Positions 1 to 4,257 are shown, numbered from the stretch's first letter. The stretch is 4,986 nt of DNA from a virus (IMGVR_UViG_2531839104_000013), one strand, 5' to 3'. Notes: generated by a model not told the origin, from the sequence alone. A program made the numbers and translations.

Positions 1-377
1 GCCGGATGAACATCGCAGGCGCGTCCTTTGCCAACATTGAAGGCGTAAAAGCGATGACCTTTGGTAACGGGCATCTTCACAACACGGTAATCAACGACCT
101 GAGCATCATCCAGCCAGAAACCTGCTTTGGTGAGTGCGTCAAAAGCGGCTTTTTGCAGATTATCCAGGTCACGGCGACGGCGATCCGGCATGTGGCACTC
201 AATACGGATTTTCACTGGCATAGCCAGGCCGATATCCAGCATGGAGCCTTTGATGATTCGGGCGACGTTATCACGGTATGCCTGCCCTTCTGCGCTGATG
301 TGCGTGCGCCCGCGATTATGCCGGTAGTAGCGATTATTGCTCGGAGGCCAGGGTAATGTGATGCTGTAGGTATTCAC
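1..377 (-). CDS. rusA: RusA-family Holliday junction resolvase, partial (3' end off window or divergent)
   Basis: Minus-strand translation from GTG at 377..375 gives (M)[106 protein letters not shown], matching RusA as I recall it. The GTG overlaps the ybcO stop (GTGA). After ~101 residues the sequence departs from the RusA C-terminus I remember and continues with no stop to position 1. Confidence 0.75.
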
Positions 378-664
378 GCCTTAATAACCCCCTCTTTCAG
401 CCAGATAACCTGTGTTCTCGCCATACCTTCCAGCGCGCATTCTTTTGCATATGCAGCATCGACAAAATGTGTGCGGCGGTCGATTTCGTCGTGGCAGGCA
501 GAACATGCAATGGTGGCAATCAAGTCTGGCGGTTTGGTACCGGTGCCGCACAATCCAGTCAGCCGGATATGTGCCAGTACAGACGTTTCAGGGTTGCCAT
601 TACATACGCCAGGGATTCTTACTTGGCATTCCCGACTACGCGCTGCTTTTCTCAAATCAGCCAT
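374..664 (-). CDS. ybcO: YbcO-like putative nuclease (DUF1364 family), 96 aa
   Basis: Translation [97 protein letters not shown] chose the ATG at 664..662, preceded by AAGGAGG, over the longer track ORF starting at 703. Stop TGA at 376..374. Confidence 0.85.
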
Positions 665-827
665 GATTCCTCCTTGCTGCCAGTCGCAACCATTTTTTAT
701 CAACCAGGCTGGCGGTATATCCGAGCAGTGTTGGTATTTCGGATGGCTTCAGCTCAGGTTTACGCTTACGACGATTTGGTACTTTGTAGATGTGTCCGTT
801 CATGACACGAATAAGCGGTGTAGCCAT
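657..827 (-). CDS. ninE: NinE-family protein, 56 aa
   Basis: Not in the ORF track (too short). Hand translation gives [56 protein letters not shown]. The ATG overlaps the ybcN stop (TAATG), is preceded by AGGAGG, and the 3' end overlaps the ybcO start by 8 nt. Confidence 0.85.
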   Translation of the reverse strand: MATPLIRVMNGHIYKVPNRRKRKPELKPSEIPTLLGYTASLVDKKWLRLAARRNHG

Positions 828-1282
828 TACGCCTCCTGCTTGTCACGCAGCAGCTGGAACTCGCAGCTCTGTGGAATAGTCAGGTGGCAGCCAATATTCA
901 TCGCCCAGGCTTCAACCTTACACAGGAAGACATACATCTCTCCGGTACCAAGATCGGAGGTATGGCGTAACGACTGGATAGTAGTGATTTCGCCGGTTAC
1001 GACATCAACCAGGTCCTTGGTTTCATAACCGAGGTATGTGTGTTTGAGAGCATCTTTTACCCATGCTGAAGTAGCGAACGATTTCCCCCTGCTGATGAGG
1101 TATTCACTGATTTCGCTGTACCACATGTGGCTGAGTGCATTCTGGGAAAGACTGCGTCTCTCGCGCCACGGTTTAAGCACCATGCGAAAGCATTTGCCGT
1201 CTTCCAGATAAGTCTGGATCTGCTGACCGACAGCGGTGAAGTTACCGCGATGTAATTTGATGCCATCTTGTGGGAGGTTCAC
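827..1282 (-). CDS. ybcN: NinB/Orf-family recombination protein (YbcN-like), 151 aa
   Basis: Track [24 protein letters not shown]...; the RSLSQN motif resembles lambda NinB. Start is GTG at 1282..1280, with GGAGG 6 nt upstream. Confidence 0.85.
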
Positions 1283-1377
1283 GCTTCACCTCCGCAGAGA
1301 TCAAACGCTGGATGCAAGACATCGCAGGTGCATTTCTGCATCTGTGACAAGGTAAGGAGTTCAGATTGTGGTCGCAT
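1279..1377 (-). CDS. Hypothetical 32-aa small ORF translationally coupled to ybcN
   Basis: ATG at 1377..1375 preceded by AAGGGGA; translation [32 protein letters not shown]; stop TGA overlaps the ybcN GTG start (GTGA). The Shine-Dalgarno and ATG lie inside the hairpin at 1373-1396. No homology recognised. Confidence 0.25.
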
Positions 1378-1396
1378 TTAAGTCCCCTTAAATGCG
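1373..1396. repeat. Hairpin/palindrome: 10-bp stem (CGCATTTAAG / CTTAAATGCG), 4-nt loop
   Basis: Perfect dyad read directly from the sequence. On the minus-strand RNA it would sequester the Shine-Dalgarno and AUG of the 32-codon ORF. Confidence 0.5.
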
Positions 1397-1401
1397 CAGA
1401 A

Positions 1402-1430
1402 GTCACCGGAGTTGTTCAAGCTCCGGTGAC
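1402..1430. terminator. GC-rich hairpin, 10-bp perfect stem (GTCACCGGAG / CTCCGGTGAC), 9-nt loop; possible terminator (tR2-like position upstream of the ninB homolog)
   Basis: Perfect inverted repeat read from the sequence. It is followed by ATTATTAT on the plus strand and TTCTGCGCATTT on the minus strand, so there is no canonical U-run and terminator function is uncertain. Confidence 0.3.
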
Positions 1431-1487
1431 ATTATTATGGAAGGTTGATACTAAAAAATCAAAAATTGAATATCATTGGCGATAGTC

Positions 1488-1510
1488 TAGCTTGTGATAT
1501 CCACAAGCTA
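1488..1510. repeat. Perfect 23-bp palindrome TAGCTTGTG-ATATC-CACAAGCTA (candidate operator or recombination site)
   Basis: 9-bp arms are exact reverse complements with a 5-bp centre; located in the non-coding spacer between ybcK and ybcN. Confidence 0.45.
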
Positions 1511-1783
1511 CTTCAATGAAGCGACGAGTAACATTTTGTGTCATCCATGTTTTTTCAGTTAAGTGCCACACCCAGTTCAAAATTTGCTGATGTGTTGAAC
1601 ATGTACTAAGCGGGATGTTGTATTCATAAGCAACATTGATTCCGCAAAATCGGTGTCGTGTCATGACCGATTCACGTTGACCTGCGCCCTGTTGAGTGCC
1701 TGGGGATATTCTTGCTCGATAGTTAATATCATAGTAGTTACTTTACTTTCATACCATAGCACGGTTGAAAAAGTGATTATTAC

Positions 1784-3310
1784 TCAAAAATAAACCTCAC
1801 CATCAACCATATATTTGAGAGCACTTATCGCCTGCTGGGCGGATATTACTTTCATTAAAGGATAGTGTTTAAAAACAATGCCATTCATAAAATAGATATC
1901 ACAGGTTTTATTATCCGTATTAATTATGATTTTTTCGAATATTTTATAGGCAAGTGTACGGCATAACTCTCGTCCATTTTTACTGGTTAAGTCAATAGCA
2001 TAAAAATCACTGAATGAATTTACACCTTTACTCTTCAAAGTTTTCAATGATACCAAAGCTCTTCGTAATTCCTTATCTAATAGTCTTATTTTCTCTGCTA
2101 TAGCGGTAACTTCAGGCGCGACAGACAATGCAACGATTAAATTATTAATTTTCATCTGAAGCTCAATAATTTTTAACTCTAAAGTTTCATTAGCATCTTT
2201 CTTGTTTTCAACTGGTTGAATTTTGCTACAATTAAAAAGCAATTCATTAATGATATTATAATCAACCAAATCTCTCTTTATTGATGGCCTGTCACATCGA
2301 TGTAATCTTCTCATCGGACAAACATAATAGCCATGCAAACTTCCAGATACCGCATGAACAATCATGGTATTACCACAAGCCTCACACTTCATAACTGTTC
2401 GAAGTAGATTTATTAGCATAGGATTCTTGCTACTATTGCTAATACCAAAAGGTGCCAACCGAATTTCCTGTACAGCGTAAAACAAATCATCTGATATGAC
2501 TCTGGGATAATAGCCAGCGATTTCACTTATCCCTTTCCCTCTTGCACGATATGAAGGTACGCATATACCTATCAGAGCTTTATTCGCTAATAATTTTTCA
2601 ATTACAGAAGGCCCCCATGCACTTTCTTTTCCTGAGAAATTCTTTACAGCATGATCATTTAAATACTTGGCTATTGCATTCAATGAGCGCCTTTCCATCC
2701 TGAGTTTAAAAATTAGCTCAATAGTTTTCACCCTGTCGGGGTCTGGAACAAAAGCCGTTCTTTTGTCATCTAAGGAGAGCCATCTCGGACAAGACGCCGT
2801 CATAATCGTACCTGATTCCAGTGCATCCTGCCGTTTTTTCTTCCATGATAATTTAACCCGACTTGACTTTATCTCGCTTTCTTCATTTGCCCTTTGTGCT
2901 ATAAGTATGGCTTTTATTAATGAATATGGCTCATTCAAAGAGTCAATATTATAGACTGTATTGTCGCAAAGAGTTATAACATCAATACCGTGATTCAAAA
3001 TCAATTTCAGACGTTCAATCGCTTCACCGACTTTTTCTCTTGAAAGTCTGTCCAGACTTTCAACTAACAATGTAGTTCCTGGCAATATATAACCATGCTC
3101 TATAGCATCTAAAAATTCCGAAAAAGCTCCTGATTGTGCATGCTTTCCTTTGAATGCACTTAATCCTAAATCTTCATATGTTATGGTATCAAGATAATAA
3201 TCACTATTTACCTTTAACCATTCAGCAATAAGTCTTCTCTGTCGGTTTAATGAGTCGCCAGACATCTGACCTGGTGATGAAAATCGCATATATGCTATGG
3301 CTTTTTTCAT
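1784..3310 (-). CDS. ybcK: Large serine recombinase (YbcK-like), 508 aa
   Basis: N-terminal resolvase catalytic motif YMRFSSPGQ (putative nucleophile Ser), TTLLVESLDRLSR motif, Cys-rich zinc-ribbon region (CEACGN...YYVCPMRRLHRC) and a coiled-coil-like region (ELKIIELQMKINNLIVALS...). AGGTG lies 5 nt upstream of the ATG at 3310. The gene is conspicuously AT-rich. Confidence 0.9.
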   Translation of the reverse strand: MKKAIAYMRFSSPGQMSGDSLNRQRRLIAEWLKVNSDYYLDTITYEDLGLSAFKGKHAQSGAFSEFLDAIEHGYILPGTTLLVESLDRLSREKVGEAIERLKLILNHGIDVITLCDNTVYNIDSLNEPYSLIKAILIAQRANEESEIKSSRVKLSWKKKRQDALESGTIMTASCPRWLSLDDKRTAFVPDPDRVKTIELIFKLRMERRSLNAIAKYLNDHAVKNFSGKESAWGPSVIEKLLANKALIGICVPSYRARGKGISEIAGYYPRVISDDLFYAVQEIRLAPFGISNSSKNPMLINLLRTVMKCEACGNTMIVHAVSGSLHGYYVCPMRRLHRCDRPSIKRDLVDYNIINELLFNCSKIQPVENKKDANETLELKIIELQMKINNLIVALSVAPEVTAIAEKIRLLDKELRRALVSLKTLKSKGVNSFSDFYAIDLTSKNGRELCRTLAYKIFEKIIINTDNKTCDIYFMNGIVFKHYPLMKVISAQQAISALKYMVDGEVYF

Positions 3311-3554
3311 GGTGACACCTGCTAACTTATGCTTTTATAAACCTTAGTGGTGAGATATAATTTTTGTTTAATTTTTATTTAAAAAGACAATTACGATCAC
3401 ACTATCTTGAATATACAACAATAATCGTATTGCAATTTGCTTACGCAATAATCTTGAAGGCACAAAAGAATACACAAAAACTAAAAACATTAACAAAAGC
3501 GGCCCATGTAAAGATATGAACCGCCATATTGCAGTCTTTTAAAAGAAATTATTT
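3311..3554 (-). promoter_or_regulatory. AT-rich intergenic region upstream of ybcK containing phased A-tracts and ATTGCAAT/GCAATA motifs; probable ybcK promoter region
   Basis: A-tracts at about 3464, 3476, 3483 and 3494 at roughly helical spacing; palindrome ATTGCAAT at 3429-3436. No confident -35/-10 pair could be assigned by eye. Confidence 0.3.
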
Positions 3555-3887
3555 TTAATGTGGTGTGCTTCGTGACAATAAATTAATAACCAACACACCG
3601 GCACAAATCAACATCATGCCTATAACGGCTGGCAGGTCCAGCCGTTGGCCGAAAAACCCCCATGATAGTAAGCTAATCAGGACAATACCGACTCCTGACC
3701 AGATAGCATAAGCAATCCCTGTAGGAATATAAGCCAGCGTCTGAGCTAATAACCAGAATGATGCACAATAACAAATAATTGTACCAACAGATGGCCATAA
3801 CCGTGTAAAACCTTCTGAAAACTTCATTAAGGTTGTACCAATGACCTCTGCAAGTATTGCACCACCAAGATAAATATAAGGGTTCAT
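3555..3887 (-). CDS. emrE: Small multidrug resistance (SMR) efflux transporter EmrE, 110 aa
   Basis: Translation MNPYIYLGGAILAEVIGTTLMKFSEGFTRLWPSVGTIICYCASFWLLAQTLAYIPTGIAYAIWSGVGIVLISLLSWGFFGQRLDLPAVIGMMLICAGVLVINLLSRSTPH is near-identical to EmrE as I recall it. I chose the ATG at 3887 over the track ORF's upstream ATG at 3941. Confidence 0.93.
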   Translation of the reverse strand: MNPYIYLGGAILAEVIGTTLMKFSEGFTRLWPSVGTIICYCASFWLLAQTLAYIPTGIAYAIWSGVGIVLISLLSWGFFGQRLDLPAVIGMMLICAGVLVINLLSRSTPH

Positions 3888-3902
3888 AACATATTCTTTC
3901 CT

Positions 3903-3937
3903 GTTCAAACTGGAGAGAATTGTACTACAGTTTGAAC
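3903..3937. promoter_or_regulatory. 10-bp perfect inverted repeat GTTCAAACTG-N15-CAGTTTGAAC enclosing a -10-like TACAAT (minus strand), about 16 bp upstream of the emrE start
   Basis: Arms at 3903-3912 and 3928-3937 are exact reverse complements; the minus-strand TACAAT corresponds to 3924..3919. Candidate operator, promoter or terminator between ren and emrE. Confidence 0.35.
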
Positions 3938-3954
3938 TCAACTCACCTGTTTCA

Positions 3955-4257
3955 TCATTGTGTACCCATTGATGTTCTTTTATATACCCTCAATACCCGT
4001 TTCATCGCGGCACTCTGGCGACACTCCTTAAAAATCAGATTCGTGCTCACCTTTCCTTCCCGTTCTTCTCTGGTAGCGAACCGGTAATACACCGTTCGCC
4101 AGACCTTACCTTCGACGACCAGGATTCCTGCCCGCGCCATTTTAGCCGCAGCCTGATTTATGCTGGTTACGGTTGCACCTGTTACCGCGGCAACGTCCTG
4201 TGCACAGAAGCTCTTATGCGTCCCCAGGTAATGAATAATTGCCTCTTTGCCCGTCAT
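3955..4257 (-). CDS. ren: Ren-like protein (lambda ren homolog), 100 aa
   Basis: Translation MTGKEAIIHYLGTHKSFCAQDVAAVTGATVTSINQAAAKMARAGILVVEGKVWRTVYYRFATREEREGKVSTNLIFKECRQSAAMKRVL... matches lambda Ren as I recall it. Its ATG overlaps the P stop (ATGA). Confidence 0.88.
   Translation of the reverse strand: MTGKEAIIHYLGTHKSFCAQDVAAVTGATVTSINQAAAKMARAGILVVEGKVWRTVYYRFATREEREGKVSTNLIFKECRQSAAMKRVLRVYKRTSMGTQ

Follow-up and report, generated by a model that had tools for sequence, protein, structure and literature searches.

Comparative analysis of the interval between ybcK and ylcH in the Escherichia coli O157:H7 prophage Sp8 (positions 1431-1783 of the 4,986-nucleotide stretch of viral DNA analysed here, referred to throughout as the window) indicates that this segment is very probably a non-functional composite deletion scar, situated within an accessory-gene slot of a DLP12-family lambdoid prophage. 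The interval consists of three blocks joined at two junctions, its homology to cargo genes of related prophages can be followed base by base, and its distribution is restricted by lineage. The same comparisons suggest that the arrangement arose by deletion as opposed to insertion, that slippage or illegitimate recombination at the short sequences AT and GAT was responsible, and that function was lost as a result.

The window shows a portion of Sp8, a lambda-like prophage, in reverse complement, and every gene within it lies on the minus strand. Comparison with the Sakai chromosome (NC_002695.2) revealed 8 differences over 4389 compared bases, all of them at window position 4111 or beyond, and the interval itself is identical to Sakai 1,623,815-1,624,167. 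The gene order, according to the ORF list and annotation, is P, ren, emrE, ybcK, the gap, ylcH, ybcN, ninE, ybcO and rusA (Table 1). Sp8 is defective: beyond P, outside the window, the replication gene O is without its N-terminus and directly adjoins xis and int (TR01 locus L001, 8518-10353; Sakai locus L007, 33351-35647). The whole of the immunity and early-left region, pR included, appears to have been deleted, and the nin-region genes would therefore be expressible from local promoters only. In O157:H7 strain TR01 the annotation records a frameshift in ybcK (L001 5354-6876), a gene that is present as an intact 508-aa ORF in the window and in Sakai, indicating that the YbcK recombinase is decaying in some O157 isolates. 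Between emrE and ybcK, PGAP places a 40-aa hypothetical protein in O157 (window 3364-3486, minus strand, transferred from L001 6934-7056), a position taken in K-12 and other strains by the 49-aa ylcJ; the length of this small gene thus seems to vary among lineages. The emrE-ybcK block is also present in active phages, including Perceval, 4A7 and Turner, and ylcH, the start codon of which lies inside hairpin H2, is kept in all of the DLP12-like loci examined. Literature searches on ECs1615/Z1871, ybcK/ybcL/ybcM and ylcH returned nothing relevant.

Table 1. Positions of genes and sequence features in the window (L004, corresponding locus of E. coli strain SCU-152).
Feature	Window position	Strand	Remarks
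P	4955-4254	minus	
ren	4257-3955	minus	
emrE	3887-3555	minus	
ybcK-like large serine recombinase, 508 aa (ECs_1615 in Sakai); left border of gap	1784-3310	minus	ORF list; annotation in Sakai, K-12 and other strains
Gap	1783-1431		Between the ybcK stop and hairpin/ylcH/ybcN
Block C, conserved 3' flank of ybcK	1721-1783	minus	Identical to L004 6191-6253; common to nearly all ybcK-bearing prophages and phages
Junction 2, 3-bp microhomology (GAT)	1718-1720		Putative 231-bp deletion (L004 5960-6190)
Block B, 80-bp remnant	1641-1720	minus	77/80 identical to L004 5880-5959; mismatches at 1686, 1698 and 1702
Junction 1, 2-bp microhomology (AT)	1639-1640		Putative 663-bp deletion (L004 5217-5879)
Block A	through 1640		Identical to L004 through 5216
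Block A, coding part: last 55 codons and stop of an 87-88 aa phage gene (phrog_12459), 5'-truncated pseudogene	1473-1640	minus	100% identical to L004
Perfect 23-bp palindrome (9-bp arms, 5-bp spacer)	1488-1510		Inside the 63-aa ORF
Conserved sigma-70-like promoter/operator element (putative); fixed right border of slot	1434-1463	minus	Consensus scan, conservation
Hairpin H1 (predicted), 10-bp stem, conserved loop C(C/U)UGAACAA	1402-1430	minus	Just outside the interval
Hairpin H2 (predicted)	1373-1396	minus	Encloses Shine-Dalgarno-like GGGG and the ylcH ATG
ylcH, 32-aa ORF (orf33 of phage 82)	1279-1377	minus	Stop overlaps ybcN start
ybcN (ECs_1616)	1282-827	minus	

The interval is unannotated in both the PGAP annotation of strain TR01 and the Sakai record. 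A preliminary description, prepared from the sequence alone, had characterised it as about 350 bp of AT-rich DNA downstream of ybcK. Its position, length (353 bp) and overall composition (38.0% GC) bear this out, but the AT-richness is uneven, since block B has a GC content of 53.7% and the remainder of the interval one of 29-37%, similar to that of ybcK. Of 5426 complete E. coli genomes, 307 contain the whole 353 bp at approximately 100% identity; among those listed, the names O157:H7 and O157 predominate overwhelmingly. Positions 1718-1783, immediately after the ybcK stop, match 792 E. coli genomes and 9 phage records, and in the remaining ∼485 genomes with a match this short stretch is the only part in common. 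A more sensitive search with 1425-1725 returned the same set of genomes and a handful of others. Since the full sequence is confined to ∼307 O157-lineage genomes, it is not a conserved intergenic region of related prophages, the finding that the preliminary description had named as evidence against its own proposals. Clonality of the O157 lineage accounts for the near-complete identity of its copies, which are uninformative as to selection or neutrality.

The composition of the interval was resolved by comparing the O157 gap base by base, in register, with the corresponding locus of strain SCU-152. Removal of 663 bp and of 231 bp from the SCU-152 arrangement yields that of O157 (Table 1), with identity on the ybcK side extending through the second microhomology (window 1718-1783 against L004 6188-6253). 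The 663-bp piece, which is present in 6 of the 5426 complete genomes and in no O157 genome, contains a 90-aa phrog_1258 gene and the beginning of the 88-aa phrog_12459 gene as far as codon 33, including its start codon and Shine-Dalgarno sequence, all of which would have been lost with it. When sequences downstream of ybcK were aligned, O157 departed from all others right after ...AACTATC, and E138, Perceval, 88-3493, Turner and SCU-152 were mutually homologous well past the O157 breakpoint. The boundary at 1718 is therefore an O157-specific deletion endpoint and not a shared cassette border, and the idea that this position represents a recombination site common to the different variants was rejected on the same grounds.

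A plausible history starts from an ancestor, as deduced from six present-day genomes, that would have resembled the SCU-152 prophage in carrying ybcK, a decayed Ant-like (P22_AR_C) gene, the 90-aa phrog_1258 gene, the 88-aa phrog_12459 gene, the promoter-like element, two hairpins and ylcH. Two illegitimate deletions mediated by microhomology, of 663 bp and 231 bp, would then have left the ybcK 3' flank, 80 bp comprising the Ant-like tail and sequence downstream of it, and the last 55 codons of the 88-aa gene. Decay of this kind is supported by the erosion of the prophage elsewhere, namely the truncated O gene abutting xis and int and the frameshift in ybcK of TR01. The deletion scar put forward in the preliminary description is upheld in so far as three fragments and two microhomology junctions are present; the genes lost, though, were not ybcL and ybcM, but an Ant-like remnant, phrog_1258 and the 5' third of the phrog_12459 gene.

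In block B, some 14-20 codons (IEQEYPQALNRA...) come from near the 3' end of an Ant-like P22_AR_C gene, and 43 bp correspond to the sequence downstream of that gene in SCU-152. Strain 88-3493 has a 107-aa P22_AR_C gene, an internal stretch of which matches window positions 1684-1722 at 92% identity, and the minus-strand translation IEQEYPQALNRA aligns with SIEQEYPQILNRA of the encoded protein (BLASTP, 13/28 identical, E = 4e-7). Longer versions of the gene, located at the same place in related prophages, are matched by Pfam PF10548 (E = 2e-9 to 1e-12). In common with P22 Ant-type C-terminal domain proteins (PF10548; phrog_7640/phrog_245), block B retains the motif IEQEYPQ.LNRA, but the ∼14 codons that align are too few to make up a domain, the profile for which has 73 positions. 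Compared with the 202-aa form, even the 53-aa and 107-aa versions found elsewhere are truncated, and the Ant-like genes can accordingly be arranged as a decay series, from 202 aa (09A19CPO009) through 107 aa (88-3493) and 53 aa (SCU-152) to the ∼14 codons of O157.

The only ORF of at least 60 aa in the interval is the 63-aa frame at 1473-1664 on the minus strand, as the preliminary description had reported. The accompanying impression that this ORF looks random is not sustained, however, since the frame preserves part of a gene: the 88-aa protein of SCU-152 ends in 55 residues that recur unchanged as residues 9-63 here, and the part rich in Trp, Cys and His is the invariant core of a family (W31, W33, H34, L35, E37, K38, T39, W40, C22 and C54 in ORF numbering). 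Residues 1-8 (MTRHRFCG) derive from block B, across junction 1, and the ORF exists because the truncated frame happens to run 8 codons into the adjacent fragment, up to an ATG. A profile search matched the ORF to phrog_12459 with an E-value of 5.8e-26, over profile positions 35-86 of 87, which is the C-terminal half of that profile. Among 5.8 billion proteins, 15 relatives were found, with identities down to 54% and including one in Serratia; these span 75-105 aa, and the near-full-length ones 87-90 aa, with almost every relative at 87-88 aa. The stretch WVWHLTEKTWM and two cysteines are kept throughout, down to the Serratia protein at 54% identity. Relative to phrog_12459 members such as WP_087906132.1 of SCU-152 and WP_042022534.1 of 09A19CPO009, the O157 copy encodes the identical C-terminus of the former and preserves the invariant core YEYNIPL...C...WVWHLTEKTWM...FIE.AC, but has lost the 33 N-terminal residues along with the native start and its Shine-Dalgarno sequence. 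It thus belongs to the family by profile match, and has neither the full-length architecture nor a start of its own preceded by a Shine-Dalgarno sequence.

The ORF could in principle be a functional, shortened phrog_12459 protein that is expressed from the junction-derived ATG, given that all of the invariant core residues are kept in an open frame and that the 63-residue phrog_2559 matches it from end to end (E = 4.4e-51). This is considered improbable. The sequence upstream of the O157 ATG, GTGAATCGGTCATG, has no Shine-Dalgarno match, in keeping with the weak ribosome-binding site mentioned in the preliminary description, whereas the start region of the 88-aa gene in SCU-152 has a good one, GAGGGACTATG. 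None of the 15 homologues returned is a 63-aa form. The phrog_2559 cluster plausibly gathers truncated copies from O157-type prophages and so does not constitute independent evidence for a 63-aa gene, since a tblastn search of 50,697 phage records with the 88-aa protein gave no match; for the same reason, sequenced phages lend the phrog_12459-type family no independent support. An AlphaFold model of a full-length homologue (P0002), computed with the 15-sequence alignment (pLDDT 88.5, pTM 0.77), predicts a helix at residues 8-24, strands at 25-28, 31-35 and 39-43, and helices at 44-47, 50-61 and 68-82, from which the architecture of the full-length, 87-88 aa proteins would be an N-terminal helix, a three-stranded sheet and C-terminal helices. 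The O157 copy begins at about residue 34 (retaining 34-88), and of this confidently predicted compact fold it would hence be missing helix 8-24 together with the β-strands at 25-28 and 31-35, leaving one strand out of three. Foldseek comparison of the model with the PDB and BFVD gave no match at E ≤ 0.001, such that no function is transferable to the O157 remnant. The available portion of the Ribo-seq tables of translated intergenic ORFs for Sakai (PMC5597208) contains no entry between 1.621 and 1.625 Mb. As a counter-point, the 55 residues retained are the most conserved part of the family and are preceded by an in-frame ATG, and a truncated product is formally conceivable.

The suggestion that the interval may harbour a small regulatory RNA, or another structured RNA, was also considered. 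O157 prophages are known to encode short sRNAs, according to the Hfq-CRAC study of Sakai (PMC4104026), and this is an unannotated intergenic prophage segment that includes a perfect 9-bp-stem hairpin at 1488-1510. The deletion scar nevertheless accounts for the whole of the sequence as gene fragments, and the signals expected of an RNA gene were not encountered. A covariance search of the whole window with Rfam 15, on both strands, gave no match at E ≤ 1, and folding z-scores for the 353-nt interval of -1.05 and -1.15 on the two strands are no better than those of shuffled sequence. The sole promoter-like site in the interval (1462-1434) points outward to ylcH and no terminator-like site was found within 1431-1783, so that the promoter and intrinsic terminator that should surround a short structured transcript are not present as a pair. 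In the part of the Hfq-CRAC supplements that was available, the prophages listed with sRNAs do not include Sp8 and there is no entry at 1623815-1624167 (PMC4104026). Absence from the Ribo-seq and Hfq-CRAC data sets is only a weak negative. Taken with the preceding observations, it leaves an RNA gene highly improbable.

The hairpin itself corresponds to the 23-bp palindrome that the preliminary description had correctly placed within the 63-aa ORF. Several inverted repeats of equal or greater length occur in the window, among which the palindrome does not stand out; the variable ...CGYHKL... stretch of the pseudogene is encoded by it, and it is not conserved in the 76%-identical homologue of 09A19CPO009, in which the corresponding residues differ too. 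It is most likely incidental. A 15-nt inverted repeat with 93% complementarity (AAAAAGTGATTATTA / TAATAATCACTATTT) was observed between 1768-1782, just past the ybcK stop, and 3195-3209, in the 5' part of ybcK, and is probably a chance occurrence in AT-rich DNA.

Comparison among strains revealed that ybcK and ylcH enclose a hypervariable slot for cargo genes, one edge of which is set sharply by the conserved promoter/leader element. At least five unrelated cargos were identified: ybcL and ybcM in K-12; an alpha/beta hydrolase gene, on the opposite strand, in strain E138 and the active phage Perceval; genes for a 107-aa P22_AR_C protein and a 169-aa phrog_1779 protein in strain 88-3493; a series of small ORFs in phage Turner; and, in SCU-152, a 53-aa P22_AR_C remnant with genes for the 90-aa phrog_1258 protein and the 88-aa protein. 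The SCU-152-type module (ybcK, antirepressor-like remnant, 90-aa gene, 88-aa gene, ylcH) occurs in six E. coli genomes, SCU-152 among them. The K-12 annotation confirms the statement of the preliminary description that ybcL and ybcM occupy this position, and in the cryptic prophage DLP12 this pair, like the O157 gap, sits between ybcK and ylcH-ybcN. The K-12 insert has no similarity to the O157 gap, however, K-12 matching the window at 1200-1464 and 1745-1899 only. The comparative alignment that had been proposed as a check thus uncovered no remnant of ybcL or ybcM, the genes lost from O157 being a different cargo, and derivation of the gap from these genes was ruled out. The nin regions of lambdoid phages contain moron or accessory-gene slots with mosaic module boundaries, and in lambda the ren-ninB interval holds tR2. 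The Sp8 slot resembles such slots in being hypervariable, with conserved bounds, adjacent to the ninB/orf homologue and with AT-rich foreign genes inside, and differs in that its content has been almost wholly deleted.

The fixed border of the slot coincides with a sigma-70-like element on the minus strand, consisting of a -35 hexamer TTGATT (1462-1457), a 17-nt spacer and a -10 hexamer CATAAT (1439-1434). An inverted repeat, TTGAT-N7/8-ATCAA, overlaps it, and the ATCAA half is invariant. A search of viral contigs with the pattern CATAAT-N13-18-TGAACAAC returned mostly chance matches, with ∼20 real elements remaining after filtering. The ∼20 distinct variants, drawn from E. coli prophages, phages and viral contigs, are unrelated to one another ahead of TTGATT and conserved from that hexamer onward, so fixing the right border of the slot to the base. 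Across 19-20 variants the two hexamers vary hardly or not at all, and their sequence and spacing are those of a sigma-70 promoter. On this comparative evidence, about 33 bp at the right edge of the interval (1434-1463), and no other part of it, belong to a conserved and probably functional promoter/operator-like element ahead of ylcH. The element may in addition serve as an anchor for homologous exchange of cargo, two copies of it flanking a gene block in 09A19CPO009. The lambdoid prophage of this strain is without emrE and ybcK; one of its two leader/ylcH-type elements (L005 2380-2482 and 4819-5159) directly follows the 88-aa gene and the other precedes ylcH-ybcN, and between them the pair brackets a full-length 202-aa Ant-like gene, a DNA polymerase III theta pseudogene and two hypothetical genes.

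A border of this precision next to a large serine recombinase gene, in a slot with so many unrelated cargos, raises the question of whether a mobile element ends in the segment or YbcK uses it as a recombination site, with cargo diversity generated by site-specific cassette exchange. The low GC content of ybcK (35.6%), the ybcK-emrE spacer (29.1%) and emrE (41.7%), as against 50-53% in the flanking lambdoid backbone (ybcN, ren and P), is in keeping with such a scheme, and suggests that the AT-rich emrE-ybcK block (1784-3950) is a foreign insertion into the ren-ninB interval. Several observations render the proposal barely credible all the same. A search for direct, inverted or tandem repeats that might mark the end of an element found none, which leaves the element terminus suggested in the preliminary description unsupported, and there is no border shared on both sides, the left one being the O157 deletion endpoint beyond which other variants stay homologous. 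The 2-3 bp of microhomology at the junctions is typical of illegitimate deletion. The fixed right border corresponds to the conserved promoter/leader, which would provide an equally good anchor for homologous recombination, and the duplicated elements that flank a gene block in 09A19CPO009 likewise count against a YbcK site.

Two predicted hairpins lie between the element and ylcH. The first, H1, has 94% of its cells paired over 20 variants, and three of its pairs are changed on both sides; the pair at position 37:58 alternates between C-G, U-G and U-A. These values were reached by 0 of 500 shuffles, and slid registers were only 21-45% paired. The U-G wobbles are valid for minus-strand RNA only, and together with the double changes are consistent with an RNA structure formed by the minus-strand transcript. 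In its sequence, H1 has no U-tract of the kind that characterises intrinsic terminators, lambda tR2 among them. The second hairpin, H2, occurs as two haplotypes, CGCATTTAAG/CTTAAATGCG and GCGCTAAACG/CGTTTATGCGC, in both of which pairing appears to be kept. RNAalifold recovers H1 but not H2, because the two haplotypes misalign, and the pairing of H2 was consequently read by eye.

Positions 1373-1463 align with features already annotated in related phages, and only the promoter part (1434-1463) falls inside the interval. In phage 82 (X92588.1), upstream of orf33 (ylcH) and orf151 (ybcN), the same hexamers are annotated as putative -35 and putative -10 and H1 as a "possible regulator-binding site", and H2 is annotated as IR4 in phi80 (JX871397.1). 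The promoter/leader element is thus known as a putative annotation, and is not new in that sense. A more ambitious reading, which is put forward tentatively and is on the whole unlikely, would have 1434-1463, H1 and H2 act as an uncharacterised regulated promoter and 5' leader RNA controlling the ylcH-ybcN(orf/ninB)-ninE-ybcO-rusA recombination operon of DLP12-, 82- and phi80-type prophages and phages, and double as a homologous-recombination anchor for cargo swaps; less likely, the 63-aa remnant would be a functional mini-protein.

The interval, then, is a case of ordinary gene decay in a defective prophage, as opposed to a new gene or RNA. Its significance lies mainly in annotation, in that two pseudogene or remnant features could replace what is presently a blank in O157:H7 genomes, and the 63-aa ORF (phrog_2559) is better recognised as a truncated copy of phrog_12459 than as a separate family. 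The leader upstream of the rusA operon is the sole part of the locus that merits experimental attention. More generally, the locus provides a clean, base-resolved example of the erasure of accessory genes by short-microhomology deletions in a defective prophage.
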